From Candidatus Latescibacterota bacterium (lineage in GTDB: Bacteria > Latescibacterota > UBA2968 > GCA-2709665), in assembly GCA_965203805.1 (NCBI GenBank), contig OZ241917.1, positions 5,440,001 through 5,504,000 on the forward strand: a DNA stretch of 64,000 nt. The letters run 5' to 3'. Position numbers and translations under genes: made by a program. The notes below the pieces were generated by a model. The model was given only the letters and a program-made list of their open reading frames with translations. It was not told the DNA's origin and did no database searches. The first letter of the stretch is position 1; every line of letters begins with the position of its first letter. This document shows, in pieces, positions 4,463 through 25,079 of the stretch.

Positions 4463-4497
4463 CAATTTTCAGCTTTGTAAACGGGAGGATAGTCGCA

Positions 4498-6726: not shown

Positions 6727-6856
6727 TGTACGCTCTACGCGGCGCGTCACTGTTCAGCCGCCGGTTCGTCCGCGAATCGCCTCAGGTGCACAATCTCGTC
6801 AATGCATTTCTCACCCTTTCCCTGAGGAGAGGGACCAGGGTGAGAGGTTTCAGGGT

Positions 6857-7172
6857 GCGAGGGCATCCTGCCCTCGCCGGCTTAACCCGGAGGTTCTTGC
6901 GCCGTCACTTCCGGTATGGCTCTTGATTCAAAGGAATCAACAGGCCCCTGGTGCAGTTATCGATGGGTTATACGAAGTTCGAGGGCAGGATGCCCTCGGT
7001 CCGGATACAGGCAGATCATGCACTGATGTAGGGCATGATGGCCCAGGTTCCATGGATGTCAAATCAGATATGGCGTCGACTCCAACGAACTGGTATCGGA
7101 CGCAATGGAAGCAATAAGGCCTACACGCGAATAGGGGTTGGTGACGCGACGTTCGAGGGCAGGATGCCTTCG
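6857..7172. repeat. Three REP-like palindromes CGAGGGCA-TCC-TGCCCTCG
   Basis: Copies at 6857-6877, 6980-6998 (inverted) and 7154-7172 (inverted); fourth copy at 56817-56836. Confidence 0.8.
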
Positions 7173-7211
7173 GTCGCAGGGCTCTCGTGGCAATTGATTT
7201 GAGTCACGGCC

Positions 7212-7328
7212 TTTTCGTTTTTTTCGTGTGTTTCGTAGTTTCCGTTGTTCGCTTTCTCGTGCTTTTCGGTTCTCATCCTGCTCCTGGTTTCTAATCCTGT
7301 TAATCCGGCAAATCCTGAAAATCCTGAT
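7212..7328. repeat. Nonamer repeat cluster (TTTCGTNNN; AATCCTGNN)
   Basis: ttttcgttt-ttttcgtgt-gtttcgtag and aatcctgtt-aatccggca-aatcctgaa-aatcctgat. Confidence 0.65.
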
Positions 7329-7375
7329 CGGTTTCTGAATGAGAGAAACCCGTCGCATATCGATGGAGAGACCCA

Positions 7376-8194: not shown

Positions 8195-8215
8195 CCCCAT
8201 TCGAAAGCGACAATA

Positions 8216-8253
8216 GACAAGGGCGGCCGGGGTAGACCCCGGTCGCCCTTGTC
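8216..8253. terminator. 17-bp hairpin between convergent genes
   Basis: gacaagggcggccgggg-taga-ccccggtcgcccttgtc. Confidence 0.6.
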
Positions 8254-8274
8254 GTGTTACGCGAGATCCGGGAT

Positions 8275-11200
8275 TCAGTCCAGGGTCGCCCTGCAGTTGG
8301 ACCGGATTCGGAATCGCCCGTCCCTTTGCACGGTGGCCGTGGCCGTTGGCGTGACCGCTACGGCGTCTCCCGGTCCGATGTCGTAAAGATAGGCAATCTC
8401 GCCAACGTTGAACCTCGCGGCGAGGTCGTGTCCGCCCACCAGCCGGATGCCCGCGTCGCGCCGCACACCCGGGCTGTGAGGCGCGAGAGTAACGTCGTCA
8501 ACGGGCAGCCAGACCGTGTGGTCCTTGTCCGTGAGCCAGGCCCCGCGGTAATATCCCTGCGCCGCCATATAGAGGTTCGTTTTGGTGGACAGCCCCGTCC
8601 CGTCTGCGTTGCGTCCAGTGATGACGAACCGGCCGATTCGGAAACTGTCGTCGCCGAACCGGATGCGATAACGCCGCCCCTTGCCTTCCACGGCCGTGAT
8701 ATTGTAGGCGGTGGCGCGGCGGGGGTTCCCGATACGGGCGACGTCGCCCCTGAGGCCCGCCGCGCGGAAGGCCTGGCTCCCGGGGTCGCGTTCCACGGTG
8801 ATCGACGCAGACCCCGGATCGATTTCCACGATGTTTCCCTGCACGGGCTTTTCAATGGAGAGGGAATGCCCACCGGCGCTGATGCATCCGGAGCCTGACT
8901 GGTGCAGGGATACCAGCTTTCCCTCCGTGTCGCGGCGGGCCAGACTGAAGCTGCCGCCGGACGGTCCGGGGGCGTGGCGGATCGTGTCTTCGCCGTATTG
9001 GTGTCGTACCTTCAGCGCGAGGGTATCGCCGCTGGCATCCAGTTGTTCGACGTCGTGTACTTTCCTGGCGCCCTTATAGGGTTCGTGCACAGCCACAAAC
9101 CGGCTGGCCGCACGGTCCCCCGCGTTGCGCAGCAGCACCCAGGTGAGTTGCTTCGGATTGCCCGGTTTTCTGGGTGGGTCGCCGTGGGCGACGATCGCTT
9201 CGTCGGAGGGCAGGAAAGTCGTATTCAAGCCTATGCCGGTCTTCGGGTCGCGCCACGCGGAGGACCACGCCGCGGTCGGATGCCCGCGCTGCGCATCGTA
9301 CAGATACGAGTATCCGCCGCCCCGGTAGGTATAATACGAGCGGCCCTTCTTCAGCGGGTCGGTAAGGCCGTCGTCGTCATATATGGCGCCGTAGGGTACG
9401 TCCGGTCCTGCCAGCGTGCCCTGCTCCTGCGGCGGGGCGAACGCGATATCGTCCGCCGTGAACTCGCCCTCGAATCCGTGCAGGCTGTAGTCGTGCCGTG
9501 TCCCGCCCGCCACGCGGAAGACGTCGAGGACATAGCGGGCGTCCTTGCCTGCCTCGATGAGCGCGAGCGTCCGCCGGTACTCGGACGTATGGCGATAGGT
9601 TTCCGGGGCGTCGACCTGCACCCAGGTCAGATCTCTCGCCCTCACGAATTGCTCCAGCCTGCCGGGCCCCTGCGTATCCTGCCGCCGGCCGTCCACCACG
9701 ACCGTTGCGTGGGCCAGGGTGTTCTTGGTCCATACCGCGGGTCGGTCGCCCTCGGCGGCGTGTTCGCCGTAACCGAGGTCGGGGATGAGTTTTCGGCCGT
9801 ACGCGAAGAGTTCGACGTTGAGACGGTCGAAATGCGCGTGTTCGGTGGCCGCCCTTCCGTAGTACAGCGCAACAGCGGTTCGTTCACGGCCTCGCCCGGA
9901 CCGCAGCAGGGCCAGGCCGAAGCCCCCCATGAGACGGCTTCCGGTGTTCATGTCTCTGAGTTCGGCGCCGACGTCGGCGTGCGGTGAAGGTTCAACTGGT
10001 TCTTCCAGCAGCGACTCGAAGCTGTTGAAGCCGGTTTTCTCCCTTCGCAGCAATTCGCCGACGAAAGGGTCTCCCGTGGCTCTGTACGCTTCCTGCAGGG
10101 AATCGCTTCCCAGGGCGACATGGCCCCCCGTCGTGGTGCCGGCGTCGCCAATGCACGGGGTGAAGCGGTCCAGGCAGATCATTTCCGCTGCCCAGCGATA
10201 CATGCGCCTGAACTTCGGTCTGTCCCAGAGCCGTATGCCCCGGCCTTCCAGCAGGCGGGCGATAACGGTAAGGTGCGTGACCCAACTGCTGTTGTAGCTG
10301 GGGGAACTCTCCCACCCCATGCCCTCACGGAAGATCAGGTTGTCCAGCGCGAAGTTGATCCCTTCCGCGTGTGCGGCCTTGTCGCGAAAGATATACCCGT
10401 CGAAGTGGGTGAGCATTTCCTTGAGTTCCGTGGCTTCACCGGTGTTGTTCATCGTCCAGTCGACGGCTTTGTCGATTTCATTCCGGTCTCCCGAGGCGAG
10501 TGCGGCGACCAGCAGGGCTTCCTGGTGGCCGCCGTAGTTGCTTCGGACGTCGCCGCGGTAGATACCGTCGAGGCTCGCGCCGATAATGCCGGCCTCGATT
10601 TTTCGGCGGAATCCGTCCGCATCCGAACTGAAGACGGGGTCGTAGGGAATGGCGCCGCGCACGGCATCCAGGGCGTGGCACAGCCGGCGCACGGTGCCGG
10701 ATTCGGAAATGAGGTCGTTCATCTTCCCCGTATAGCCCGGCGAGAATTCCAGCGCGTACATGGATTGCCTGCTGTAGTCCATGTGCGGATAGACCTCGGC
10801 GAGCCGGTCCAGAATGACGAGCGCCTTGTGGGCATACCGGCCGTCGCCGCTGAGCAGATAGGCCTGCGAGAGCGAGGTGAGGCCGGCGACGACGGCGTTC
10901 CACGTACTGCAACAGCAATAGGCGATGAACCAGTGCCGAAAGGGCGCGTTTTCGCCCCGCCAGCCCCATCCGTCGTCCGCGTAAGGGCCGGTGAGCAGGC
11001 TGCGGTCTTCCATGCCGCTCTGGTAGAACGCCTCGAAGTCGTTGCTGGGATAGGATTCGCCGCCCACGGCGCAGGTCACGCGCCATTTGTCCTTGAATGG
11101 ATCGTGTATCCACCCTCCCTGGGCGTACCCGCCGTAACCGTTGGGGCCGCTGCCGTGGACCGGACATCCGCTGACGAAGTTGATGGTCCAGCTCCGCGGT

Positions 11201-11358
11201 ATTTCGGCGGACGGCATCAGCGTGCGAATGAAGTCCCGGTCCCGTTCCAGCCAAGGATTCGCGTCTTCAATGATACGCCCGGCGATTTTTTTCGCGTCGG
11301 GGTCAGCCGCCGCGCGTTGCCGGGCGAGTCGGATCTGTTCCGGTGTGTAGAGATTCAC
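8275..11358 (-). CDS. Heparinase II/III family polysaccharide lyase-like protein
   Basis: alpha-barrel region with ESSPSY, then HAHFDRL, DLGY, AHATVVVDG; no signal peptide. Confidence 0.8.
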   Translation of the reverse strand: MNLYTPEQIRLARQRAAADPDAKKIAGRIIEDANPWLERDRDFIRTLMPSAEIPRSWTINFVSGCPVHGSGPNGYGGYAQGGWIHDPFKDKWRVTCAVGGESYPSNDFEAFYQSGMEDRSLLTGPYADDGWGWRGENAPFRHWFIAYCCCSTWNAVVAGLTSLSQAYLLSGDGRYAHKALVILDRLAEVYPHMDYSRQSMYALEFSPGYTGKMNDLISESGTVRRLCHALDAVRGAIPYDPVFSSDADGFRRKIEAGIIGASLDGIYRGDVRSNYGGHQEALLVAALASGDRNEIDKAVDWTMNNTGEATELKEMLTHFDGYIFRDKAAHAEGINFALDNLIFREGMGWESSPSYNSSWVTHLTVIARLLEGRGIRLWDRPKFRRMYRWAAEMICLDRFTPCIGDAGTTTGGHVALGSDSLQEAYRATGDPFVGELLRREKTGFNSFESLLEEPVEPSPHADVGAELRDMNTGSRLMGGFGLALLRSGRGRERTAVALYYGRAATEHAHFDRLNVELFAYGRKLIPDLGYGEHAAEGDRPAVWTKNTLAHATVVVDGRRQDTQGPGRLEQFVRARDLTWVQVDAPETYRHTSEYRRTLALIEAGKDARYVLDVFRVAGGTRHDYSLHGFEGEFTADDIAFAPPQEQGTLAGPDVPYGAIYDDDGLTDPLKKGRSYYTYRGGGYSYLYDAQRGHPTAAWSSAWRDPKTGIGLNTTFLPSDEAIVAHGDPPRKPGNPKQLTWVLLRNAGDRAASRFVAVHEPYKGARKVHDVEQLDASGDTLALKVRHQYGEDTIRHAPGPSGGSFSLARRDTEGKLVSLHQSGSGCISAGGHSLSIEKPVQGNIVEIDPGSASITVERDPGSQAFRAAGLRGDVARIGNPRRATAYNITAVEGKGRRYRIRFGDDSFRIGRFVITGRNADGTGLSTKTNLYMAAQGYYRGAWLTDKDHTVWLPVDDVTLAPHSPGVRRDAGIRLVGGHDLAARFNVGEIAYLYDIGPGDAVAVTPTATATVQRDGRFRIRSNCRATLD

Positions 11359-11796
11359 CTGGGCTCCTGGTTATCTGTGACAGTTGACGCGGATGCTCCT
11401 TTTCGTGCAGGAGATCATCCGCGCGCGGGAAATTATCGGAGGCGCCGTTTGCGCACGCGCGGGCACCGAAGCGGTACCGATGACCGGCCCATCAGTATTT
11501 CGAAAGCGAGGCGAATCCGCAAGGCTATTTTCGACCGCCGGGATGAATCGTCGGATGGAGGGAGCACTTTCACCGGGGCGGGTAACGGAGGGTCAACTCA
11601 AGTCGTGCGCCACTTGCCGAAGCGCTTGACGCCTGATGACATATTTGATAAATAGTCGAGGTTCGACAGCAGGCGTTTCAGTTCGAAAAAGGAGCAACCC
11701 GACGCCACGATGCCGCGTCTCGGGCGGCAATCCTCACGGCGGGGATTCGCCTCGCATATCGGCCGCTTGCGCTTCGGGCACACAAGGGGAAACTGA

Positions 11797-12738
11797 ATGG
11801 AATATCGCACGCTCGGACGAACCGGGCTTCGTGTTTCGGTGCTGGGCATCGGGACGGGCGGTCCGAGTCAGTTCGGACAGGGTTCCGGCGTTCCGGAGGC
11901 CGATGCCGGCCGGATGGTGCGCAGGGCGCTGGAACTGGGCGTAAATTTCTTCGACACCGCCGCCGGATATGGGGATAGCGAGGCCATTCTCGGCAGGGCG
12001 CTGGCGGGCGTGCCGCGGGAGAACTACGTGCTGGCGACAAAGGTGCAGGCGGCGCGGGACGACTGGACCGCCACGTCCGAAGACGTGGTCGCCTCCGTGG
12101 AGCGAAGCCTTGCGCGCCTCAGGGTGGACGTGATTGACGTCATGCAGTTTCACGGCGTGAAGCCGGAAGACTACGCGCGCACAATCGAGATCTTCCTGCC
12201 GGTAATGGCGCGCCTTCAGGAGCAGGGAAAATTCCGGTTTCTGGGCGTATCTGAGACCTATTCGCAGGATCCCGGGCACGAGATGTTTCCGACGGCGCTG
12301 GCCGACGGCCATTTTGACACGGCAATGGTCGGGTACAATATGATCAGCCCCACGGCGGAGCACAGCGTCCTGCCGATGTGTCTGGAAAAAAACGTGGGCG
12401 TGATCTGTATGGTGGCCGTACGCCGGGCGCTGAGCAGGCCGGAGGTGTTGGCCGAGCGTATCGCCTACGCGAAGGAGAAAGGGCTGATAAAAAGGGATTC
12501 CGTGCCGGATGAGGATCCGCTGGGCTGGCTCGTGAAGGGGCACGTGAATTCGCTGCCGGCGGCCGCATACAAATACGTGGCGTCCCATCCGGCGATGGGT
12601 ACGGTGCTTACGGGCACGGCGAACATCGAACACCTGGAAGCCAACGTGAAGGCCATACTCGGGCCGCCGCTGCCGGACGAAGACATGGCGCGATTGAGAG
12701 ACATCTTCGGCGCCGTGTGGGAACCGTTGGGGAACTGA
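11797..12738 (+). CDS. Aldo/keto reductase
   Basis: MEYRTLGRTGLRVS, FDTAAGYG, ATK, SLARL. Confidence 0.92.
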   Translation: MEYRTLGRTGLRVSVLGIGTGGPSQFGQGSGVPEADAGRMVRRALELGVNFFDTAAGYGDSEAILGRALAGVPRENYVLATKVQAARDDWTATSEDVVASVERSLARLRVDVIDVMQFHGVKPEDYARTIEIFLPVMARLQEQGKFRFLGVSETYSQDPGHEMFPTALADGHFDTAMVGYNMISPTAEHSVLPMCLEKNVGVICMVAVRRALSRPEVLAERIAYAKEKGLIKRDSVPDEDPLGWLVKGHVNSLPAAAYKYVASHPAMGTVLTGTANIEHLEANVKAILGPPLPDEDMARLRDIFGAVWEPLGN

Positions 12739-12745
12739 TGCTGTA

Positions 12746-13004
12746 AAAGGCGGGTAGAGGGAAGACGTTAGACGGGAGATTCCGTGAGTGCGCTATGGTT
12801 ATTCTTGATTGTTACGATAGCGGCAAAGAAACAGGCACGGTTAGCGTGAAAACACTGTGGTAACGTTATCATCTACCGTCTACCGTCTTGCGTCTCACCG
12901 GTTTTATTGCCCGATGCGGTTTCATTTCTTGCCGGAGGCAAAAAGGAAGAAACAATCGAGCAAGGATGTCATCTCCCGTCTCCCGGCTCACGTCTTACCG
13001 AAGT
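12746..13004. repeat. Heptamer (AGACGNN)-bracketed cassette locus 1: H>, A(-), <H, B(-), <H
   Basis: Cassette A 12781-12870 and cassette B 12905-12970 are reverse-complement homologues of copies at loci 3-6. Confidence 0.85.
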
Positions 13005-13094
13005 TAGTCGACCACACCGCAGAGAGACGGCATGTATCGACGGGAGATTGGGAAGACATTTTCGGGACAGGACACGATCTGAGAGGAGCGTTGC

Positions 13095-14216
13095 ATGGGC
13101 GAGACGACCGCGGAATCCGAGGCGCCGGCGACAGACGGCCGGAAATCCGATGTGACCCTGATAGACGCGGATGTCCACAATTATCCGGACTCCATGGACG
13201 AACTCCTGCCCCACCTGTCGAAGCGGTGGCAGGCGTACGTGAAGCAGTCCGGGTTTACGCTCCCGTCGGTTTCAATCTATCCCAAGCTCTTTGCCCAGGC
13301 CGCCCGGCGCGACGCGTGGCCCCCGAGCGGCAGGAGGCCCGGCGCAGACGCCGATTTTGCGCGGGAGCAGTTGCTCGACACATGGGATATCGACTATGCG
13401 GTTCTCAACCCGCTCGTCGCGGTGTCGTCCGTACGAAATATCGATCTTGCCAACGCGCTGCAGCGGGCGGTCAACGAATGGACCCGGGAGGCATGGCTGG
13501 ACGCCGACCGGCGCTGGCGCGGTTCCATCGTCGTCAATATCCAGGACGCAGACGCCGCCGCGGCCGAGATCGAGCGCCTCGCGGGCGACCGTCGCTTTGT
13601 ACAGGTGCTGCTGCTCGTGCGCTCCTACGCCCCCTACGGTCGACGCGAATTCAGGCCTGTATTTCGCGCGGCGGCGGCGGCCGACCTGCCGGTAGGCATT
13701 CACTTTGGCGGCGGTGGCAATCCCATTACCGCCAGCGGCTGGCCATCCTATTATATCGAGGACCACACGGGAATGTCGCAGGCCTTCGAAGCCCAGGTCA
13801 TCAGCCTGGTATGCGAAGGCGTTTTCGAGGAACTGCCGTCTGCCCGCGCGGCCCTCATCGAGGGTGGATTTGCCTGGCTTCCGGCGCTCATGTGGCGGCT
13901 GGACAAGAACTACCGGGGACTGCGCAGCGAAGTGCCCTGGCTCCGGAGGCTGCCCAGCGAATACATCCTGGATCACTTCCGCGCCACGACGCAGCCCATG
14001 GAGGAGCCCGCCGATACCCGGCACCTGCTCTCCATTCTGGACATGATCGGGCGCGACGACTTTCTGATGTTCGCCACCGATTACCCCCACTGGGACTTCG
14101 ACGCCCCCGACCGGGCCCTGCCGCGGGCAATCAAGGGCGCCCTCAGACAACGCATTCTGTCCGAAAACGCGGCGGCTTTCTATGGCCTTGAAGACAATCG
14201 ACATCGGATCAGTTGA
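13095..14216 (+). CDS. Amidohydrolase_2-fold protein (possible dinuclear oxygenase)
   Basis: [24 protein letters not shown]. Confidence 0.85.
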
Positions 14217-14547
14217 CGATTTCGAGCCCGGCCGGCCGCGTCGCGTGGCAGCGGGCGGGCGGGCGCTGACGGTGGTGCGCCGCGGCCGGCGTTTCTTCGC
14301 GTTGCGCGATATCTGTCCCCATCAGGGTGCGCCGCTGTCCGCCGGAAAGGTGGACGGTACCGCCATGCCGTGCCGACCCGGCGAGGAAATCTCGTACGGC
14401 CGCGTGGGCGAAATCCTTACCTGTCCCTGGCACGGCTGGCAATTCGACCTGGCCACCGGCCGCGCCCTGATCGAGCCCGACCGATTTCGCGTGCGGGTCT
14501 ACCCGGTGCGCGTCGTTTGCGGACGCGTGGTTGTGGACCTCAAATAG
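14182..14547 (+). CDS. Rieske [2Fe-2S] ferredoxin
   Basis: CPHQG...CPWHGWQFD; overlaps the upstream gene by 35 bp. Confidence 0.92.
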
Positions 14548-14606
14548 CAGCCAGTTGAGAAAGTCCATCCGGACACCCGAACGACCTTCCCCGATCGGAG
14601 CCACGA

Positions 14607-15791
14607 TTGATCCGAATCGGCAATCCGTTTTCCGAATGGAACCGGGATTTCAGACTGCTGGCCGCGGCGGCGTTTTCCGTCGGTGTGTTTTTCGGCGTGC
14701 AACTCACGTTGTACAACAATTTCGCCGTGGATCGCCTGGGCATCGAGCCGCACGAACTCGGGTACGTGGAAGCCCTGCGGGAGACGTCGGGATTCCTGAA
14801 TGCGTTCTTCATCGCGCTCATGATGCGCGTGGCGCCGCCAGTCGTCGCCGGCGCTTCCCTGCTGGTGATGGGCGCCGGACTTGCCGCGTACGCGGATGTG
14901 TATACCGTATTTTCCCTCGCCGTATATTCGGCGCTGTGGGGCATCGGGTTCCATTGCTGGATCCCCATGGAACAGTCCATGGCGTTGCGGTTTTCGCCCG
15001 AGGGAAAGAAAGGAAAATGGCTGGGTCAGCTGCGGAGCGTTCATGCCCTGGCGTGGCTGCTGACCATCGGGGTCTGTAATCTCGTTTTCCATCTGATCCG
15101 CTACGACTGGCTGTTCGTGGGGGCGGGAGCGATCACCGCGCTGGGCGGACTCACGATCTTCTTCGCCGGCAGAAGGCGCCCGGAGTTTCGGGAGAAGAGT
15201 TTCGTGTTCCGCCGCCGCTACGGCCTGTATTATGCTCTGAATTTTCTTCAGGGCTGCCGGAAGCAGATGTTTATCACGTTTGCCATCTTCGCGCTGGTGA
15301 AAGTCCATGGGATGCCCGTGGAAACGACGATGGCGCTCGTGCTCATCAATCAGACGCTGATTACGTTAACGGCCCCGCTGATGGGCCGGATGGTGGACAG
15401 GTATGGAGAACGGGCGGTGCTCAGCTGGAGCTATATCGGGCTGGCCTTCGTTTTTTTCGGATATGGCGCGATTCAGCACCGTCCGACGCTGTACGTGCTA
15501 TATTGCGTGGACAACCTTATCTTCTTCGGGGGCATCGCGCTGACCACGTACCTGCACAAGATCGCGCCGCAGGAGGACCTGAAGCCCACGCTGTCCATGG
15601 GGGTGACAATGAACCATTTCGCAGCCGTGGCCGCGCCGCTGATCGGCGGGTTGGTCTGGCGTCACTTCGGCTACCAGGTGATCTTTTTCAGCGGCGCGGT
15701 CCTGGCGTTGATTTCACTGGTGGTGAGCCAGTGGGTGGATCCGGAGGGCATGCTTCGTCGAGAACGCGAGGCGCCCGCATTGGCGGATTGA
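14607..15791 (+). CDS. MFS transporter
   Basis: About 12 hydrophobic helices; GRMVDRYGER motif A. Confidence 0.88.
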   Translation: MIRIGNPFSEWNRDFRLLAAAAFSVGVFFGVQLTLYNNFAVDRLGIEPHELGYVEALRETSGFLNAFFIALMMRVAPPVVAGASLLVMGAGLAAYADVYTVFSLAVYSALWGIGFHCWIPMEQSMALRFSPEGKKGKWLGQLRSVHALAWLLTIGVCNLVFHLIRYDWLFVGAGAITALGGLTIFFAGRRRPEFREKSFVFRRRYGLYYALNFLQGCRKQMFITFAIFALVKVHGMPVETTMALVLINQTLITLTAPLMGRMVDRYGERAVLSWSYIGLAFVFFGYGAIQHRPTLYVLYCVDNLIFFGGIALTTYLHKIAPQEDLKPTLSMGVTMNHFAAVAAPLIGGLVWRHFGYQVIFFSGAVLALISLVVSQWVDPEGMLRREREAPALAD

Positions 15792-15827
15792 CCCCCGCGC
15801 GGGCATCGAACTGATAGGGAGGACAGG

Positions 15828-16781
15828 ATGAGGTCTCGAGAACTTGGACGTACGGGAATTCGGATCTCGGAAGTGGGATTGGGTTGCTGGCCGATCGGCG
15901 GCGCGTCATTCCGCGGAGGCAGCCCCACCGGCTGGTCCGGCGTGGATGTCATGGGATCGGTTGACACCGTCCGCCGTTCCTGGGCGCGCGGTGTGACATT
16001 CTACGATACAGCGGACGCGTACGGCCGCGGCAAGAGCGAGGTGCTGGTGGGTCTGGGCTTGTACGAAAACAAGAACGATGCCGTGATCTGCACCAAGGTC
16101 GGAATGAGTCTCGCGGCGCCGGGGCAGGATTTCTCCGAACCGTATATCCTTGGCGCGCTGGACGCGAGTCTTACGCGCCTGGAGCGCGATACCGTGGATC
16201 TGTATCTGTTGCACGGCCCACCGCTGGAGGGGATGACCGACGCCCTGTTCGGGTTGATGAGAGACCTGAAGGGGTCGGGCAAGATTCGCGCGTGGGGCGT
16301 TTCGATCAGTCCGGTCGAAACCTCCGACGTGGTTGTGGAGGAAGGACTGCGCGCGATGGAGGGCGGCGCCGAGGCGATTCAACTGGTGTACAACATCCTT
16401 CAGCAGAAGGAAGGCGACGCCCTGTTTCCCGCGGCGCTGGAAAAGGGCGTGGGCATGATCGCGCGGGTGCCCCTGGCTTCCGGCTGGCTGACGGGAAAGT
16501 ACAATGAACGTACCGAATTTCCCGCGGACGACCTGCGGAGTATCAGATACACTTCAGAGAGGGTGAGGGAGACGGCTGCGCAGGTCGGACAGCTGGACTT
16601 TCTGCTGGAGGAGGCGGATTCGATGGTCGACGCCGCACTGCGGTTCGTCCTTTCGAATCCCGCGGTTTCCACGGTCATTCCGGGGGCGAAGACGCCCGCA
16701 CAACTGGATGACATCGTCAACGCGGCCGGGAAGACGTTGTCGGCCGGCGCCCTGGATCGGGTCCGGGAACTGTTCGGCTGA
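15828..16781 (+). CDS. Aldo/keto reductase
   Basis: LGRTGIRIS, YDTADAYG, CTK, LYLLH. Confidence 0.92.
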   Translation: MRSRELGRTGIRISEVGLGCWPIGGASFRGGSPTGWSGVDVMGSVDTVRRSWARGVTFYDTADAYGRGKSEVLVGLGLYENKNDAVICTKVGMSLAAPGQDFSEPYILGALDASLTRLERDTVDLYLLHGPPLEGMTDALFGLMRDLKGSGKIRAWGVSISPVETSDVVVEEGLRAMEGGAEAIQLVYNILQQKEGDALFPAALEKGVGMIARVPLASGWLTGKYNERTEFPADDLRSIRYTSERVRETAAQVGQLDFLLEEADSMVDAALRFVLSNPAVSTVIPGAKTPAQLDDIVNAAGKTLSAGALDRVRELFG

Positions 16782-16802
16782 TTCGCGGGACGAGGAGCAG
16801 CA

Positions 16803-16934
16803 AAAGGCAGCTATCAGCCGTCAGCGTTCAGCAGTCGGCTTGAGTCAAAAGCGAAAATCAACTTCGACATCCCCATCTCCCCAAATTCCCTGAAGGCGGG
16901 TAGAGGGAAGACGTTAGACGGGAGACGGGAGATG
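16803..16934. repeat. Repeat locus 2: CAGCNNT heptamer module E, module C, AGACGNN array
   Basis: 16803-16848 matches the reverse complement of 48556-48601; 16857-16897 matches the reverse complement of 30505-30545; 16893-16925 is identical to 12747-12779 (33 bp). Confidence 0.85.
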
Positions 16935-16997
16935 ATATATCGCGTCTCCCGGACGACGATATGGCATCGCGAAATTTATCGGCGATAGACGTGCAGA

Positions 16998-17037
16998 CCT
17001 CTCCCCCCGGCCCCCTCTCCCGCGGGGAGAGGGGGAG
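16998..17037. repeat. CCCTCTCCC-GGGAGAGGG REP-like hairpin
   Basis: ccccctctccc-gcg-gggagaggggg; degenerate relatives near 6811-6834 and 59358-59379. Confidence 0.65.
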
Positions 17038-17179
17038 CAGAACCAGGCGTAAATCAAGCAATGACAAGATCCTCCCTCTTTCAGGAACGTCGCAGGTGGG
17101 TTGCGGTCTTGGGGGATTTGCAAGCGCTCTATCAATAAGGAATGTAAGTGTTTTGAACTTCGCGCCATTCCGTCGCGCG

Positions 17180-17365
17180 TTCGGTGGCTGAGCGGGGGGT
17201 TTTTGCGTGTTAATCCGTGCAGCTCCGAAGCAGAATGAGACCGATTGGGTACTCAGGCCACAGTCGCTCGTTTGTACCACTGGGTTGGTTCACGCAAAAA
17301 CCGGCCCCGCGCCGAGCGGCGCCGTTCTTTTTGGTCCTTTTTCTTGGGCGTACAAGAAAAAGGAC
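17180..17365 (+). other. Long imperfect hairpin plus perfect 13-bp hairpin (candidate structured RNA or repeat)
   Basis: 17192-17209 pairs with 17291-17310; inner stems rich in G:U; gtcctttttcttg-ggcgta-caagaaaaaggac at 17334-17365. Confidence 0.55.
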
Positions 17366-17611
17366 GAAGAGAAAATAAGAGTTTGTGAGAGAGATTAAGA
17401 TCTTGTTCTACCGGAGGTTAGTTCCAAAAGGTGTTCGTCCGCCGACAGGCGACCTGCGCAATGGTGGCAAGTGAGGACACTTCGACATGCCGCTTCCGCA
17501 AGCCACTTCGGCAAGCTCAGTGCAAGCAGCGTAAGCAACGCCGCGAGGCGGGATGATTCAGCGGAACATGGTGACGCATTTTGAGAGAGAATACCAGGGA
17601 GGGTTGCTGAT

Positions 17612-18595
17612 ATGGTCGGATTCGCGGTTGTCGGCCTTGGAATGGGACAAAACCGGTCAAGACTGATTCACGGTACGGACGGCGCCGCGTTGAAGGTCGT
17701 GGTGGACCTGGACCGAACGCGCCTGGAAAAGGTGAGTTCCGAACTGGGTGTGGAGGGAACAACGGACCTGAACGCGGCGCTTGATCGGGCGGACGTGGAC
17801 GTGGTGATGGTGATGACGCCCAGCGGGACCCATGCCGACCTGGGCATTCAGGCCGCCCGCGCGGGCAAACACGTGATAACGACCAAGCCCATGGACGTGT
17901 CGACCGACGCGTGCGACCGGTTGATCGCGGCCTGCGACGAGGCCGGCGTGCTCTGCGGCGTGGACTACCAGAGCCGGTACGTCGACAACAACTGGCGCGT
18001 GGCCGAAGCGCTGAGACGGGGCTGGCTCGGCAAGCCCATTCTCGGCGAGGTGCGTTTCAAGTGGTTCCGGGCGGCGTCCTATTTCGAGGCAAGCGGCGGC
18101 TGGCGCGGGACGTGGAAAATGGACGGGGGCGGATCGCTCGCCAACCAGGGGGCGCACCTCCTGGACGTGATGTGCTGGTTTATGGGCGACGCGGTTTCGG
18201 TCTATGGTGAAACGGCCGTCATGAACCATGAGATCGAAACCGAGGATATCGGGCTGGCAATCGTGAATTTCGCGAACGGCGCCAAAGGCACGATTGTCGG
18301 CACCACGACGTTTCCGTCGAGTGCGTATTTCAGCGCGGAAGTTCACGGATCGGACGGTGGGGTGTTGATCGAGGACGTGCTTACGGGCAAGATGAGTGTG
18401 TTCGGCGAGGGCCTGCAGGAGCGGCTGGCGACGGTGGAGAATCCACTTCAGAATATCGTGGAGGACGTCGTCAGCGCCGTGGAGAGAAGGACGCCGCTAC
18501 GGGTCGACGGACAGGAGGGACGCCGGACAGTGGCGCTGCTGGAGGCCGTCTACAAGTCGGCGCGGGAGGGCCGGCCGGTTGAGGTCGACGCATGA
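17612..18595 (+). CDS. Gfo/Idh/MocA oxidoreductase
   Basis: VGLGMG, TTKPM, GGGSLANQGAH. Confidence 0.9.
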   Translation: MVGFAVVGLGMGQNRSRLIHGTDGAALKVVVDLDRTRLEKVSSELGVEGTTDLNAALDRADVDVVMVMTPSGTHADLGIQAARAGKHVITTKPMDVSTDACDRLIAACDEAGVLCGVDYQSRYVDNNWRVAEALRRGWLGKPILGEVRFKWFRAASYFEASGGWRGTWKMDGGGSLANQGAHLLDVMCWFMGDAVSVYGETAVMNHEIETEDIGLAIVNFANGAKGTIVGTTTFPSSAYFSAEVHGSDGGVLIEDVLTGKMSVFGEGLQERLATVENPLQNIVEDVVSAVERRTPLRVDGQEGRRTVALLEAVYKSAREGRPVEVDA

Positions 18596-18661
18596 TTGAC
18601 GGATAGTACGGTCGTTTCCGCGTCCGCAATTTTCCTGTCGATTCGACGAGTCATTTCCGTC

Positions 18662-19270
18662 TCACGTCGACGGAGAATCGAGCCGGGCAACGCCGACCAT
18701 CGCGTCTCGCGTGACGAGCGGGACAAGCGCTTCCTCGCTGAAGCCTTCCGTGCCGCCGGGACGCTCCGGGAGTACCATATAGCGGAGATCCGAGTTGCTG
18801 TCCCAGACACGGATTTCCACCGAATCGGGCAGGTGAAGGTCGAATTCCTTCAGCACGGCTCTGGGTTCCCGGACGAGCCGGGAGCGGTAGGCGTAGGACT
18901 TGTACCATCCGGGCGGCAGCCCGAGCAACTGCCAGGGATAACAGGAGCACAGCGTGCAGACCACAACGTTGTGGACTTCCGGTGTGTTTTCCAGAACAAC
19001 GATCTCAGCGCCGTCCCTGCCGCTGAAGCCCAGTTCCGCTATCGCCCCCCTGCCGTTTTCCAGCAGTCTCCGCCTGTAGTCCGGGTCCGTCCAGGCGCGG
19101 GCCACCACTCTGGCGCCGTTGAGCGGGCCGATGTCGTTCTCGTACCTGTTCACGACTTCGTCTATGCGTTCGGTCGTGACCAGCCCCTTTTCAACCAGGA
19201 GCGATTCCAGCGCTCGTGTGCGCAGCGCCGCGTCGGATCCGCTCGGGACCGATTCTTCCTGTCTGCTCAT
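18662..19270 (-). CDS. nthA: Nitrile hydratase alpha subunit (Co-type)
   Basis: [11 protein letters not shown] metal site; CTLCSC is the Co-type motif. Confidence 0.95.
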
Positions 19271-19300
19271 CGCAATGGGCCCTCTCTGTTCCGGATGTGT

Positions 19301-19972
19301 TTACACGGGTTCCAGGTAGCTTTCCCACATGTCCAGATAGACTGCGTTACGGGCTTCGGCCGACTCCCCCCACAATTCGCGGGATGCGAAGCGCACGGCA
19401 TACAGCGATTGCTCGCGGCGCAAGCACCCCTCGGGCAGTTCGGCGTCCTGAAGGTCGTGGATTCCGTAAAAGCGCGTGATGGTTCCGGTTTTTCCCCGAA
19501 CGTACCGTGGAAGCCGCGTGTGCCCTTCGGGATGGATGTTCAGCGCCCGCACCCGGTCTCCATTTTGAAATTGCGGCCGGACGTCCGCCTGCGATGGGGT
19601 GGATTCAGCCGTTCTTCGGCTCGCCAGGTCAGCGCGGACGCCGTCCGGGTCGGCGTGGACCGGTGTTTCGGCGTCCGGCCTTTTCCGGAGCAGCGCCATT
19701 CTCGTTTCCAGCTCATCCGCCGTCAGCGCGCCGGCATCGATCAGGCCCTTGACCCTGGCGTGCAGCCACTTTTCGTAGTAGGTGGACGACAGATAGTGGG
19801 CAGGATCCATGTTTTCGATGTTGTTGCGCGAACCTCCGGGCACGGGCACGGGTGTGGCCACGGCCATTCCCAGTACGCGCCGTTCCCACTCGTGATGGAA
19901 CAGGGGTTCGTTTTCTTCGCGTACGACCGGGCCGAATCCGTGCATCCCGCCCATATCGTGTATGCCGTCCAT
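19301..19972 (-). CDS. nthB: Nitrile hydratase beta subunit
   Basis: MDGIHDMGGM, YYEKW, GHTRLPRYVRG, LWG, DMWESYLE. Confidence 0.95.
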   Translation of the reverse strand: MDGIHDMGGMHGFGPVVREENEPLFHHEWERRVLGMAVATPVPVPGGSRNNIENMDPAHYLSSTYYEKWLHARVKGLIDAGALTADELETRMALLRKRPDAETPVHADPDGVRADLASRRTAESTPSQADVRPQFQNGDRVRALNIHPEGHTRLPRYVRGKTGTITRFYGIHDLQDAELPEGCLRREQSLYAVRFASRELWGESAEARNAVYLDMWESYLEPV

Positions 19973-20058
19973 CGGCGCCTCCTTCGGCCCCCGTCGTGAT
20001 GCGAATTGGTTTTGACCGCGGATCGACGGTGTGTTTCTTGCTCTGGCGTATCCTTCGA

Positions 20059-20769
20059 TCAGGCGCTTCTTGAGTCGTTTCCGTCGTACACGATGTTGCC
20101 GCGGACTCGAATGCGCTTGGGGTTTGGCACATCGGACAGCTCATCCACGCTGTGGTATCCGATGGTCATGCTCATTCGTGTGTTATCTGTCCGGTTCTGT
20201 CCGATGCCGTGGATGATCATGCTGTCGACGACCAGCATGCCTCCCGCGGGCATGGGCACGACCACGGCCTGACGGATGAGGTCCCGCGTCGGTCCGTGGT
20301 TGTGAAGGCGACCTTCGATGCCGGGAAAGTGGTGGGTACCGGGCACGATAAGGGTGGCGCCGTTTTCGGCCGTGGTTTCTTCCAGATAGAAAATTACGGT
20401 GAAGATCGTGCGGGACCACTGCCTCACGTCGCGATGGAAGCCGTCGGGCCCGGTCTCCACCGAGGTGTTCAGGGTCGCGTGGTTGTGCCGGTTCTTGACA
20501 AGTTCGATATTGGGCCCCATCAGACACGTCAGGGGGTCGAGCACGAGGGGGCTGGACGCGGTTTCCAGGAATATGGGGTCTCTGTCCACCAGGTCCGAAA
20601 TCCGCACCACCCGCCCCGCGCTGTTCCTGACAACCGGTTCCACCTCAGCCTCGATATCGGCTCGAATGGTCCTCCGGAGCCTTTCGACCGTGTGTTCGGG
20701 AATACGGTCCGGCAGCTTCAAAAAGCCGTTGTGGCGAAACAACTGTATCTGCTCGCGAGTGAGCGCCAT
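20059..20769 (-). CDS. PhyH-family Fe(II)/2-oxoglutarate dioxygenase (HxD)
   Basis: LTREQIQLFRHNGF, FHRD, NGATLIVPGTH, IIHG, RMS. Confidence 0.88.
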   Translation of the reverse strand: MALTREQIQLFRHNGFLKLPDRIPEHTVERLRRTIRADIEAEVEPVVRNSAGRVVRISDLVDRDPIFLETASSPLVLDPLTCLMGPNIELVKNRHNHATLNTSVETGPDGFHRDVRQWSRTIFTVIFYLEETTAENGATLIVPGTHHFPGIEGRLHNHGPTRDLIRQAVVVPMPAGGMLVVDSMIIHGIGQNRTDNTRMSMTIGYHSVDELSDVPNPKRIRVRGNIVYDGNDSRSA

Positions 20770-20857
20770 AGCGGGACGATCCGGCTGACAGTCCGTTGGA
20801 AAAGTCGCGCTGCAGGCGAGGTCGGCCGCAGCCCGGATGGACTTTATAAACGGGCTG

Positions 20858-21595
20858 TTAAGGTGCCTTTGGAAAAGGGTGCGGATGACCGATATAGATT
20901 CGTTCGCCCGCGACGAGGATTTTCTCCGGGTCTTCCTTGATGACATCGTGGGCGGCGTGCGCCTGGTAACCCAGTGTCATACTCCTTCGGGAAACGGCCG
21001 AGTTGTTGGTGCCGGCGCCGTGGAAGCAGGCGTCATTGAACAGCAGGACACCGCCGCGAGGCATCGGCACCGGGAGGGACTTGGTGAATAAGTCGGAGGT
21101 CTCGAATTCACCGCCCGGGCGGCGCGGACGCCTGAACGGACGCCGGTGGCTTCCAGGCACGATGCGGATGCAGCCATTGTCCAGAGTGGATTCCTCGAGG
21201 TAGATGAGGGCCGTAACCAGTGCGGGCTGGTAGGGTTCTTCTCCGCTGTGCCAGTAGACGAATTCGGATCCCGGCGGGCGGACCATGATGTGATTGTGCT
21301 TGTTCGTGAGCAATTCGATATTGGGGCCGAGAATGGACGTGAGCGGGTCCAGAACACATGGATGCGTGGCCGCGTGGAGGTAACTGCGGTCACGGGAGAG
21401 GACCTTCGAGAGCCGGCGAACGTCGTCCGGCTCGCGCGAGCCGGATTTCTCCCAGACAACCGGTTCGATCATCCCCCGGATCTGTTCGTCGGTAACGGCG
21501 TTCAGGCGTTCGACGAGATCGTCCGGCAGGGTTTCCGGAACCCTGTGGATGCCTGTGTGGTCGAAGTACCAGAGATCCTCTTCAGTCAGGCCCAA
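20858..21595 (-). CDS. PhyH-family Fe(II)/2-oxoglutarate enzyme with HxG motif
   Basis: YWHSGE, NGCIRIVPGSH, CFHG, RRS; TTG start. Confidence 0.85.
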   Translation of the reverse strand: MGLTEEDLWYFDHTGIHRVPETLPDDLVERLNAVTDEQIRGMIEPVVWEKSGSREPDDVRRLSKVLSRDRSYLHAATHPCVLDPLTSILGPNIELLTNKHNHIMVRPPGSEFVYWHSGEEPYQPALVTALIYLEESTLDNGCIRIVPGSHRRPFRRPRRPGGEFETSDLFTKSLPVPMPRGGVLLFNDACFHGAGTNNSAVSRRSMTLGYQAHAAHDVIKEDPEKILVAGERIYIGHPHPFPKAP

Positions 21596-21926
21596 GACAA
21601 TTCCCCGCGACTTGTGAACGAACGAAAGCGGTAAAACCGGGACACGGGCTTCCGCGATATGTTATGGCGGTCCGGGATGCCCTGTCAAGGGTAATCTGGT
21701 GTCCGTTCCGGAGTCGAGGGAACATCGGACCGGCGGCGCGACGTTCGCGGTTTCGGAGCCGCAGAGCCGTTCATTTTTTACTGTGGCGTGAATCCCAAAA
21801 ACCGTTATATTATAGTCTGAATGCGCCTGATGTCCGCGCGGGTCGATTGTCTCAATGATTCAAAACGCCGGCGTGGACGGCTGATTGATGGCGGTCTGTT
21901 TGTATGTTCGTCGAAAGGGATGGTAC

Positions 21927-23774
21927 ATGCCGAATGCGTTGCTGGTCAGTCCCCAGAATCCCGTGACCTTCTGGAGTTTTGACGAAGCCCTGAAAATGAT
22001 CGACAAGAAGGTCGCATTCCCTCCGCTGGGGCTCCTGACCATCGCGGGGATGATGCCCGATTCCTATAACCTGCGCATGGTCGATATGAACGCACACCCG
22101 CTGATCGATGAGGATCTCGAGTGGGCGGATATCGTGATCACGTCGTCAATGATCATTCACTGGCACTCGTTGGAAGACGTGATTGCGCGCTGCAACCGGA
22201 TTGGGGTTCCCGTCCTGAACGGTGGCCCGCTGCCAACCCAATACTTCAAGGAAATTGAGGGCAACGGGGTATTTTATCTGGGCGAGGCCGAGAACGGTTT
22301 TATGGATATCGTAGACCGGCTCGCCGCCGCTTCAGGAGAGGTCAACCGGGAATACGTAGACCGCCGCGGGAGTTTTCAGGACCTGGCCGTAACGCCGCTG
22401 CCCCTCTGGTCCCTCGTCGACTTTGAAGACTACAGCAATATGGTGATCCAGGTCACGCGCGGGTGTCCGGAAAGCTGCACATTCTGCAATATTCCGTCGC
22501 TCTACGGGAAAACGACACGACTGAAGAGCAAGAGCAGAATGATCCAGGAACTCGATGCGCTCTATAACGCGGGCTGGCGCGGCGCCGTGATGGCGGTCGA
22601 CGATAACTTCGTTGGGAATCGGGATGCCATCCGGCACGCGCTTACGGACGAGGTCGTGCCGTGGCAGCAGGAGCGCGGCTACCCGTTTCAGTTCCACACC
22701 CAGGCCAGCATTCGCGTCAGCGACGATCCGGAGTTGCTCGAGGCCATGTACCAGGCGGGGTTCGACAAGGTATTCGCCGGAATCGAGTCTCCGGTAGCGG
22801 AAAGCCTGAAATTCATGGGCGCACAGAAAAATCTGCAGGGCGAGACGCCGCTCATGGACAAGGTGAAAATTCTTCAGGAAACCGGATTCGAAGTGCAGGC
22901 GGGCTTCATTATCGGGCTGGATACCGATCCGGACGATATCGCGGAACGGACCATCGCCTTCATCCGTGAGGCGGGCATTCCGGTTGCTATGGTGGGCATT
23001 CTCGGCGTATTGCGGGATACTCCGGACTACAAGAGGTTCAGCCGGCAGGGGCGGCTGGTGGAAGGCGCGAAGTACACAGGAGATTCCGGCATTTTCAGTC
23101 GTGAATTGAGCTACGTACCGCTGATCGACCCGGACACGCTGCTTGACCGGCACCGGAAGACGGTCGAACTATTGAACAGTCCGCAGGTCTTCTTCGAGCG
23201 GTGCCTGACGTTCTTCAACCACCGGAAACGCCAGCCCGTCGGCAGCATGCCGATCCGGATGCAGGAAGTCAGGGCATTCTTCCGTTCAATCTGGCGGCAG
23301 GGCGTCTGGAACAGGAATTACCGGTCGGAATACTGGAAATTCCTCTTTCAGGTGCTCATCAAGCATCCTGCCAGTCTGTCCGACGCGGTGCGGCTGGCCG
23401 TCCAGGGTCATCACCTGATTCTGACGACACAACGCGCGTTGCAGGTCGACGAAGTGAAGACGTTTCTGGACGAGGCGATCGAGCACCTGCAACACTTCCG
23501 CAATGGCTACCGCGCGGCCTACCGCAAGAACATGGGGGCGTACGCCAGCCGGCTGATGCGGACGGTTCACGACCGTCTCGAGCATTTTCAGGACGACCAT
23601 CGGACGCTTCAACAGCATACCGCGGTGTTCCGAGGCGCGGCGCAGGAGTACTACCAGGCAACCTGCGAGGAGTTCCGGCACCAGATTCACGAGCCGGTAG
23701 AACGATTCCAGCAGGATACGGAACAGCTCCTGCAGACCTTCGCGGCCGAGCGCGCCGCTCTGCAACAGTCCTGA
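21927..23774 (+). CDS. B12-binding radical SAM protein (DUF4070-type)
   Basis: FPPLGLLTIA cobalamin domain; RGCPESCTFC (CxxxCxxC); YWKF in the DUF4070 region. Confidence 0.9.
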   Translation: MPNALLVSPQNPVTFWSFDEALKMIDKKVAFPPLGLLTIAGMMPDSYNLRMVDMNAHPLIDEDLEWADIVITSSMIIHWHSLEDVIARCNRIGVPVLNGGPLPTQYFKEIEGNGVFYLGEAENGFMDIVDRLAAASGEVNREYVDRRGSFQDLAVTPLPLWSLVDFEDYSNMVIQVTRGCPESCTFCNIPSLYGKTTRLKSKSRMIQELDALYNAGWRGAVMAVDDNFVGNRDAIRHALTDEVVPWQQERGYPFQFHTQASIRVSDDPELLEAMYQAGFDKVFAGIESPVAESLKFMGAQKNLQGETPLMDKVKILQETGFEVQAGFIIGLDTDPDDIAERTIAFIREAGIPVAMVGILGVLRDTPDYKRFSRQGRLVEGAKYTGDSGIFSRELSYVPLIDPDTLLDRHRKTVELLNSPQVFFERCLTFFNHRKRQPVGSMPIRMQEVRAFFRSIWRQGVWNRNYRSEYWKFLFQVLIKHPASLSDAVRLAVQGHHLILTTQRALQVDEVKTFLDEAIEHLQHFRNGYRAAYRKNMGAYASRLMRTVHDRLEHFQDDHRTLQQHTAVFRGAAQEYYQATCEEFRHQIHEPVERFQQDTEQLLQTFAAERAALQQS

Positions 23775-23864
23775 TGTCCCGTCACCCGGACAGGTAGCCG
23801 TTCTCCCGCCGATTTCTCCCGTCTCGATACGCGGGGTCGACCTCGCGCAGGACACCAGGGCGCA

Positions 23865-25079
23865 TTACAGCTTCCAGTATTCGTCGATGTCGCGCTGGTA
23901 GGCGTTGATCTTTCCACTGATCACGTCGTTGACCTTGACGACTTCGCGGGATTTGCCCGATTCGTACAGCGCTATGCTCACCGCCTTGCTGCGCAGGCCT
24001 TCCTCCGCATCGATTTCCACGTTGCGTCCGGTGCTGATCGCGTCAATAAAGTCCCAGAGTTCCAGGGGCATGCCGCCGGTGATGCCGTAGGGAAACAGGC
24101 GTTCGTTCTCTTCTTTGCTCAAGCTTTTCCGATACATATTCACAACGCGTTCCATGCTGTACGATACCCCATCCAGTAACTGACACTCGCCGCGATGAGT
24201 GCTTGCCGCCGGATGGAAGATATCGTACTCCACGATGGTTCCCCTGCTGCCCGTCAGATTGAGTTGCAGGAATCCCTTGCCGGGGGCGCTGTTGGTCCAG
24301 GACCAGGTGCCGATAACGCCGCTCTTGAAGTTGAAGATACTCGTCCAGAAGTCCTCTCGCGTGTCGTTGATGATTCGACGTCCCTTCCGGTGCGGGCGTT
24401 TCTCAAGTTGCTCCACGCGGGCGTAGACGCTGTCTATTTCGCCGAACCAGTAGCGCATCGTATCCACCCAGTGGGCGCCGCTGTCCATCACCATGCCGCA
24501 CCCGCCCAGCCGACGGTCCACGCGCCAGTGCCAGTCCGGGAACTTCTGCGGGTCCTGCCAGGAGGCGCTGGCACCCAGCCAGAAGCGGGGTTCCCCCAGC
24601 AGCCCGCCCGCGTTGAAGGCCCAATGGATGGCGCGCTGTCCGACGCTGCGGCGGCACTGTTCGGCCGTTGCGGCAATGCGTTTGTGTTTCTTTGCCGCGG
24701 CGATTATCTTTTTCGTGGCTTTCACCGTGATGCCGATGGGTTTTTCGCAGAGAATGTGCACGCCGCCGGCAAGAAGCTCGCATGCCAGGACGTGATGCAG
24801 GCCGTGAGGGCCGCAGATATCGGCGCCGTCCAGATGTTTTTCGCCGTTGAGCAGTTCTTCCACGGTCCTGTAGGCGTTTACCGGCTCGCCGGTATGACTC
24901 TCAATTCGGTCTGCCATTTCCCTGGCGCGTTCCGGGATATCGTCCACGGCAGCGACAATGCGAAAGCGCGTTTCGTTTTTCTCGAGGAGTTCGGCGTATC
25001 CCCTGAGGTGCGCGCCGGCGATGCCGCCGCAGCCCACCATAGCCAGGTTCACCCGTCTTCCGTTGGATTGTCCGGCCAT
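23865..25079 (-). CDS. Gfo/Idh/MocA oxidoreductase
   Basis: VGCGGIA, LCEKP, DSGAHWVD; RBS GAAAGGA before ATG 25079. Confidence 0.9.
   Translation of the reverse strand: MAGQSNGRRVNLAMVGCGGIAGAHLRGYAELLEKNETRFRIVAAVDDIPERAREMADRIESHTGEPVNAYRTVEELLNGEKHLDGADICGPHGLHHVLACELLAGGVHILCEKPIGITVKATKKIIAAAKKHKRIAATAEQCRRSVGQRAIHWAFNAGGLLGEPRFWLGASASWQDPQKFPDWHWRVDRRLGGCGMVMDSGAHWVDTMRYWFGEIDSVYARVEQLEKRPHRKGRRIINDTREDFWTSIFNFKSGVIGTWSWTNSAPGKGFLQLNLTGSRGTIVEYDIFHPAASTHRGECQLLDGVSYSMERVVNMYRKSLSKEENERLFPYGITGGMPLELWDFIDAISTGRNVEIDAEEGLRSKAVSIALYESGKSREVVKVNDVISGKINAYQRDIDEYWKL

Follow-up and report, generated by a model that had tools for sequence, protein, structure and literature searches.

In a 64,000-nucleotide stretch of contig OZ241917.1 from a Candidatus Latescibacterota bacterium (positions 5,440,001 to 5,504,000 of the forward strand; hereafter, the window), one gene encodes an Fe(II)/2-oxoglutarate (2OG) oxygenase of the PhyH family, which we call protein A, in which the aspartate of the iron-binding facial triad is replaced by glycine. 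Judged by its relatives, protein A belongs to a clade of PhyH-type oxygenases marked by an H-x-G-E motif and a coupled lysine. It is a conserved enzyme with both histidines and the 2OG-binding arginine in place; the Asp-to-Gly exchange extends across the clade, and it is accompanied by an invariant glutamate, Glu119, that covaries with Lys99. An earlier note on this DNA had read the motif as that of a candidate radical halogenase, paired with a hydroxylase paralogue (protein B), while allowing for a register-shifted glutamate ligand. We favor, with a probability of roughly 0.55-0.6, the reading that protein A works as an oxygenase, does not halogenate, and has had its iron site rewired; that Glu119 itself is a direct iron ligand is a more tentative proposal, to which we would give somewhat less than even odds. 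No published work on the H-x-G-E clade was found in the open-access literature searched.

Conservation and origin of the H-x-G-E motif

Protein A matches the Pfam family PF05721 (PhyH) at 80.2 bits (E 3.3e-22; cut-off 22 bits), and its motif lies in the context F-V-Y-W-H116-S117-G118-E119-E120-P. The proximal histidine, distal histidine, and 2OG-binding arginine of the PhyH superfamily are all retained, as H116, H192, and R203; the aspartate or glutamate that the superfamily carries two residues past the proximal histidine is absent, and Gly118 stands in its place. Protein B, whose gene starts 88 nt downstream of that of protein A on the same strand, is a second PhyH protein (PF05721, E 3.4e-19) with a canonical triad, and is 36% identical to protein A (88 of 244 residues; E 4e-46). 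The earlier note's readings of the two motifs at codon level, H-S-G in protein A and F-H-R-D in protein B (Table 1), hold on the sequence, as do the distal histidine and arginine that it saw in both paralogues (H192 and R203 in A, H187 and R198 in B, the arginine 11 residues past the histidine) and the common stretch LDPLTxxxGPNIELxxNxHNH. In a profile-profile alignment of the two families, G118 falls opposite D114 of protein B, E119 opposite V115, and K99 opposite the arginine of B's N-R-H-N-H; there is no gap between the histidine and the downstream YLEE block, and the loop from the histidine to the next strand is of equal length in both. We note in passing that an NCBIfam score of 29.8 bits for methylphosphonate hydroxylase, set against a cut-off of 500, was not used as an identification of protein A.

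A word-indexed protein search returned 268 proteins at E <= 1e-5, and the best 120 of these 268, which span 48-100% identity, were listed and aligned by MAFFT. The H-x-G-E motif is present in 119 of the 120 listed homologues, the remaining one (P0120) reading H-R-D-E, and Lys99 is present in all 120; the distal histidine is found in 114 and the arginine in 115, with fragments making up most of the exceptions. Throughout the 119 H-x-G members, position 118 is strictly glycine, never alanine or serine, and position 119 is always glutamate, never aspartate or glutamine, while the residue that follows is variable (E/Q/H/K/S/A/P). An alignment of 42 diverse members has as invariant columns H116, H192, and R203 together with 27 others, which include E119, R204, and N98-K99-H100-N101. 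No longer, fused relatives of protein A appeared at E <= 1e-10, which is weak evidence, and a look-up in the ESM Atlas gave generic PhyH clusters only.

A scan of genomes, one per species, yielded 302 matching stretches, 237 of them encoding relatives, and the best 80 of the 237 were kept (hereafter, the 80 loci). All 80 read W-H-x-G-E, where x is S in 47, A in 27, T in 3, and R in 3. The glycine is written with all four of its codons (GGC 37, GGT 22, GGG 11, GGA 10) and the glutamate with both of its own (GAA 52, GAG 28); since the motif is kept in every locus across synonymous codons, both residues are held by selection. The earlier note had left room for the glycine being a mutation private to this protein, a possibility that its conservation throughout the family excludes. 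By phylum, the 80 loci come from Latescibacterota (51), Gemmatimonadota (15), Poribacteria (3), Planctomycetota (2), Acidobacteriota (2), and Rhodothermota (1), with 6 unassigned.

To follow the motif outward, 1.84 billion cluster representatives were searched exhaustively with HMMER, giving 2029 matches at E <= 1e-3 and 25 at E <= 1e-30. Nearly all relatives below about 47% identity carry H-R-D or H-Q-D and then a hydrophobic residue, with N-R-H-N-H replacing N-K-H-N-H; in the H-R-D relatives, the position matching Glu119 holds valine, isoleucine, or alanine. A tree of 84 rows (A, B, 60 HMMER representatives, and 22 of the listed homologues, chosen by length and motif presence; IQ-TREE in quick mode with SH-aLRT support) places all H-x-G rows in one clade of 25 with support 100 and a stem length of 0.51. 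This clade is nested among H-R-D relatives, has an H-R-D-A row (P0127) and an H-R-D-Q row (P0142) as its neighbors, and contains the single H-R-D-E row, P0120. Protein B falls in the tree's other main half, in a subfamily distinct from that of A, so the two are not recent duplicates; their 36% identity likewise rules out a recent tandem duplication.

The coupling between positions 99, 118, and 119 is apparent from a census by regular expression over all proteins fetched, in which 69 fragments or divergent sequences remained unmatched: about 126 proteins combine Lys99 with Gly118-Glu119, 138 combine Arg99 with Asp118 and any following residue, one combines Lys99 with Asp118-Glu119, and four combine Trp99 with Gly118-Ala119. 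The four last-named proteins (P0124, P0272, P0273, and P0274; four clusters at 90% identity) were found by a search seeded with P0124 and make up a side branch of the H-x-G clade reading N-W-H-N-H and W-H-R-G-A, in which the two histidines and the arginine are kept and Lys99 and Glu119 are both lost. On these residues, the side branch is a cleaner candidate than protein A for a site with two histidines only, whether halogenase-like or AspH-like. Clustered at 90% identity, the H-x-G clade as a whole amounts to about 126 clusters, and the 237 stretches of species-representative genomes noted above encode relatives; the clade is widespread, with members in Latescibacterota, Gemmatimonadota, and Poribacteria, mostly in the first of these.

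An AlphaFold2 model of protein A, built from the 42-member alignment (pLDDT 90.6, pTM 0.88), has the predicted double-stranded beta-helix fold, in which H116 ends a strand (residues 113-116) and is followed by a loop (117-125). Foldseek comparison of this model with the PDB returned 2a1x, 4xbz, 2opw, 8h7y, and 5nci at the top (probability 1.00, TMq 0.66-0.73), and the matches include human PHYH, EvdO1, PHYHD1, SnoN/SnoK, H11, GriE, EctD, and SyrB2. When the family profile is searched against the PDB, PhyH (1.4e-15), PHYHD1, EctD, and others lead; the halogenase SyrB2 ranks 24th (2.6e-6), and CytC3 scores 3.5e-3, both of them after many hydroxylases. Specific similarity to a characterized halogenase lineage, or descent from one, would be a supporting rather than a defining feature of a halogenase, and it was not found for this family, which by these scores stands no nearer to the known halogenases than it does to hydroxylases.

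The iron site and the proposed role of Glu119

The arrangement that we favor may be described as follows. With the canonical aspartate changed to Gly118, the role of the carboxylate would be taken over by the invariant Glu119, paired with the invariant Lys99. Most likely, Glu119 would fold back to fill the room that Gly118 leaves and would bind the iron, giving a shifted H-x-x-E...H triad; otherwise, it might act through a bound water. R203 would hold 2OG, and the outcome would be ordinary oxygen transfer of the hydroxylation type on a small polar substrate, with no halogenation. We treat Glu119 as a residue of catalytic type because it is invariant and is present exactly where Asp118 has been lost. 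The strictness of Gly118, which is never alanine or serine, fits a requirement on the backbone rather than a mere need for space, and on general geometric grounds it is plausible that a glutamate three residues past the histidine might come within reach of the iron, provided that the backbone is able to turn at Gly118. The compensatory-looking pairs Arg99/Asp118 and Lys99/Glu119 also count in favor of a shifted ligand.

Several considerations weigh against this arrangement. We are aware of no naturally occurring 2OG oxygenase in which the carboxylate is shifted. The Asp-to-Gly and Val-to-Glu changes both fall on the single stem branch of the clade, and they thus represent one evolutionary event rather than repeated covariation. 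The side branch with Gly118-Ala119 keeps both histidines and the arginine, so the scaffold may work with two histidines; since that branch lacks both Lys99 and Glu119, these two residues may instead form a substrate-binding pair. In BesD, where the iron ligands are H140 and H207, D143 makes a salt bridge to the substrate amine (PMC13244439), and, with the BesD glycine placed at position 142 by the H-x-G rule, an acid that follows such a glycine need not, by analogy, bind iron. In prolyl 4-hydroxylase, moreover, rearranging the triad residues abolished activity (PMC2767507).

A further possibility, which we consider to be a good deal less probable than not, is that protein A is a hydroxylase with two histidine ligands, in the manner of human aspartate/asparagine beta-hydroxylase (AspH), with water or a substrate anion such as a carboxylate or sulfate in the third position and with Lys99 and Glu119 as a second-sphere or substrate-binding pair. 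AspH, as an H-x-G...H hydroxylase (PMC10947486), is a precedent for such a site and shows that the exchange for glycine, which the earlier note gave as the hallmark of radical halogenases, is not a sufficient criterion. The side branch, with no carboxylate nearby and with Lys99 and Glu119 lost together, also speaks for such a site, as does a neighborhood that handles anionic substrates (sulfatases within 23 of the 80 loci, enolase-family genes, and uronate-type genes). AspH belongs to a different fold family, however, and thus provides an analogy only, and the absolute invariance of Glu119, which is never replaced even by aspartate, is more typical of a ligand or a catalytic residue. AspH was the only relevant case of an atypical iron motif in the open-access literature searched; Cpz10 (PMC9814697) has a normal H-R-D triad and has no bearing here.

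We regard it as unlikely that protein A is a true radical halogenase, in which the iron would be held by H116 and H192 only, a halide would occupy the site vacated by the aspartate, and Glu119 and Lys99 would grip a zwitterionic substrate, such as a free amino acid, a dipeptide, or an amino sugar, in the way that Asp143 of BesD does. The strictly conserved H-x-G is the very rule by which Fe/2OG halogenases are annotated, in the form H-x-G/A (PMC13519999), and the acid of BesD directly after its glycine, serving a substrate amine (PMC13244439), gives Glu119 a ready counterpart. The Trp99/Gly-Ala side branch, which in this case would be the purest two-histidine form, suggests that such a site is viable in the scaffold. 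Among the structural matches, those of lowest root-mean-square deviation (about 3.1, TMq 0.73) are the free-amino-acid hydroxylases H11 and GriE, and SyrB2 has the same fold (rank 8, TMq 0.66). Also on this side of the balance, M19 dipeptidase genes occur within 12 of the 80 loci and directly downstream of A in L017 and L021, and an M20 peptidase gene lies directly downstream in L043.

Against these points, the motif itself is the sole evidence for halogenation, and the family has no specific kinship to any known halogenase. No carrier protein, nonribosomal peptide synthetase, polyketide synthase, or other hallmark of a halogenated natural product, and no biosynthetic cluster or halogen-related partner, was seen in the scanned open reading frames (ORFs; 81 from 20 loci, 31 from 6 loci, and 46 from the window). 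One would expect a carboxylate next to a vacant iron site either to ligate the metal or to repel halide, and the Asp-to-Gly exchange alone gave no halogenation in the engineered enzymes of two reports (PMC10245910; PMC2767507). Of the halogenase/hydroxylase pair proposed in the earlier note, what stands is a real and conserved motif and a pairing of H-x-G with H-x-D that is kept elsewhere, a B orthologue (here, at least 55% identical to B by tblastn over the 80 loci) lying directly downstream of A in 33; the halogenation does not find support beyond the motif. The broader version of the idea, that the H-x-G clade represents free-standing halogenases, or anion-transferring enzymes generally, that evolved independently in the PhyH fold and reside in catabolic or housekeeping loci, seems to us doubtful as well.

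It is very improbable that protein A, impaired in catalysis, serves B as a heterodimer partner in the way that TlxI serves TlxJ: the adjacency of A and B in those 33 loci and the same-fold precedent of an inactive paralogue that helps its active counterpart (PMC12141560) are outweighed by the retention in A of both histidines and of the 2OG-binding arginine that TlxI lacks, by the strong conservation of its active-site residues, and by the occurrence of A with no B within 6 kb in 43 of the 80 loci. Structure prediction of A and B together with iron scored 0.49, versus 0.46 for the control, a difference that speaks neither for nor against their binding. Finally, because the His/His/Arg residues are conserved, a pseudoenzyme is unlikely.

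Gene neighborhood and other features of the window

The features discussed here are listed in Table 1. Downstream of protein B lie genes for the two subunits of what is, from its profile matches, a complete nitrile hydratase, the beta gene followed by the alpha gene (18662-19972, minus strand), both scoring above NCBIfam equivalog cut-offs. The V-C-T-L-C-S-C motif of the alpha subunit is a mark of nitrile hydratases of the cobalt type. No nitrile hydratase activator or accessory gene is visible adjoining 18662-19972, the next gene (17612-18595, plus strand) encoding a Gfo/Idh/MocA oxidoreductase. Protein A is probably co-transcribed with B and a downstream hydrolase (the nitrile hydratase in the window; in relatives further removed, a sulfatase). 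A scan for promoter-like consensus sequences found 2 sites, versus 0.7 expected from shuffles, and no terminator-like site was found on the minus strand from protein A to the alpha subunit gene, consensus matches being the only basis in both cases.

Table 1. Positions of the genes and sequence elements discussed, in window coordinates.
Feature	Position	Strand	Remarks
Mu-type transposase/integrase	384-1931	-	
Heparinase II/III-like protein, 1027 aa	8275-11358		Within the carbohydrate-type gene run
Nitrile hydratase alpha subunit	18662..19270	-	Contains V-C-T-L-C-S-C; Pfam NHase_alpha, E 2.4e-86; TIGR01323, 298.2 bits vs cut-off 249.85
Nitrile hydratase beta subunit	19301..19972	-	Downstream of B; Pfam NHase_beta_N and NHase_beta_C; TIGR03888, 210.7 bits vs cut-off 152.2
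Protein B gene	20059..20769	-	ATG at 20769; 236 aa plus stop; PhyH paralogue with canonical H112-R-D114, H187, R198; motif G-F-H112-R113-D114-V, codons CAT CGC GAC at 20436-20428
Protein A gene	20858..21595	-	TTG start; 245 aa; PhyH-family Fe(II)/2OG oxygenase (ORF and translation, Pfam, AlphaFold2, Foldseek)
Protein A His192 to Arg203	20987..21022	-	F-H-G-A-G-T-N-N-S-A-V-S-R; second iron ligand and 2OG-binding Arg
Protein A H116 S117 G118 E119	21239..21250	-	Codons CAC AGC GGA GAA; altered facial-triad motif; H-S-G codons at 21250-21242
Protein A Lys99 codon	21299..21301	-	Within N-K-H-N-H; position covarying with the 118/119 pair
Promoter-like site TTGACA-18-TAACAT	21659..21688	-	About 64 nt upstream of protein A start; consensus match only
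Radical SAM protein, 629 aa	21885..23774	+	B12-binding domain and DUF4070 (Pfam); divergent from A
Nickel superoxide dismutase	42101-42640	+	
GmrSD-type restriction endonuclease	60024-61742	+	

On the other side of protein A, a divergent gene encodes a radical S-adenosylmethionine (SAM) protein with a B12-binding domain. No NCBIfam equivalog matched this protein, for which there were only weak sub-threshold matches; the best of these, to the PhpK family at 63 bits with a cut-off of 600, was not used as an identification. A scan with Rfam matched no RNA family in 16500-24500, and thus no cobalamin riboswitch was found beside the B12-dependent radical SAM gene.

Across the 80 loci, B orthologues occur in 37 and radical SAM orthologues in 35, 34 of the latter together with B. 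In this sense, the A-B pair and the divergent B12/radical SAM gene behave as a cassette, while the downstream hydrolase differs between loci; the cassette is seen in the window (18662-21595, minus strand) and at about 7270-9260 in loci L013, L027, L040, L044, L045, L047, L048, L050-L055, L057, L058, L060, L071, and L074. The nitrile hydratase beta and alpha genes are found in 14 loci, which are the closest relatives of the window locus, and in one of them (L001) they directly follow A with no B. A sulfatase (PF00884 plus SGSH_C) lies directly downstream in 18 loci. Other families within the 80 loci include enolase-family (5), GH2 (4), FGE-type (3), and DUF6785 (3) proteins, as well as further PhyH paralogues, aminotransferases, and peptidases. 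Sulfatases and nitrile hydratases both have an oxidatively modified active-site cysteine, and A and B could act either on a shared small substrate or on the hydrolase itself. Nothing on a PhyH protein together with a sulfatase or a sulfated polysaccharide was found in the open-access literature searched. In one locus (L003, 6753-7449), the B orthologue is in two pieces in different frames (residues 1-91 and 97-236), which may reflect a frameshift or an assembly error.

Additional PhyH paralogues surround A in several loci (L041 3292-8818, L049 4970-8814, L018 5952-6761, L022 6778-7587, L028 2778-3626, and L034 2700-3491), with as many as four PhyH genes in L041 and an enolase-family gene often alongside the clusters. 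These clusters recall the large PhyH expansions with no assigned function that are described for Poribacteria (PMC3909097).

Taken with the left half of the window, which encodes heparinase II/III-like, UxuA-like, Gfo/Idh/MocA, xylose-isomerase-like, and aldo-keto reductase proteins, the gene context of protein A looks catabolic rather than biosynthetic. The run of carbohydrate-type genes extends over 2301-16781 and comprises a flavin adenine dinucleotide-dependent (FAD) oxidoreductase, a UxuA-like dehydratase, Gfo/Idh/MocA proteins, xylose-isomerase-like barrels, two aldo-keto reductases, and a major facilitator superfamily transporter. Two plus-strand ORFs, 18596-19999 (467 aa) and 20152-20940 (262 aa), overlap the nitrile hydratase genes and B on the opposite strand, in DNA of 60% GC, and are probably not genes.

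Comparison with known oxygenases and halogenases

The clade of protein A, which is large, conserved, and known from uncultured bacteria, fits the H-x-G/A rule for halogenases and yet has an invariant glutamate beside the glycine and loci that are not biosynthetic. Should Glu119 prove to be an iron ligand, the clade would be, to our knowledge, the first natural shifted facial triad in a 2OG oxygenase, and motif-based mining for halogenases would have in it a concrete set of false positives. If the residue is not bound to iron, the clade would instead be a new free-standing lineage of PhyH-fold halogenases or a bacterial counterpart of AspH. Either outcome would sharpen the sequence rules for the Fe/2OG enzyme class.

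The characterized PhyH hydroxylases (PHYH 2a1x, PHYHD1, EctD, EvdO1/2, H11, and GriE) share with protein A the Pfam family, the predicted fold, and the His/His/Arg set. They differ in carrying a carboxylate two residues past the first histidine, where protein A has glycine and then the invariant glutamate; in the alignment with 4xaa, W-H-S-G-E of protein A stands opposite W-H-R-D-R. The radical halogenases comprise the PhyH-fold enzymes SyrB2 and CytC3 as well as BesD, WelO5, and AdaV, which lie outside that fold; SyrB2 reads H-x-A and WelO5 reads H-x-G. With these, protein A has in common H-x-G/A in place of H-x-D/E, conserved across its own family, and with BesD also an acid directly after the glycine; it differs from them in showing no specific sequence kinship, in its invariant Glu119, and in having no biosynthetic context in the ORFs scanned. 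The TlxI/TlxJ system resembles A and B in that two same-fold paralogues are encoded together, and both TlxJ and TlxI are among the PDB matches; TlxI, however, has no 2OG-binding arginine (PMC12141560), whereas R203 of protein A is invariant and A is also found without B. AspH, finally, has the H-x-G...H motif of protein A and hydroxylates with only two protein ligands (PMC10947486), but it belongs to another 2OG-oxygenase subfamily and acts on a protein substrate, so the likeness is one of the metal site.

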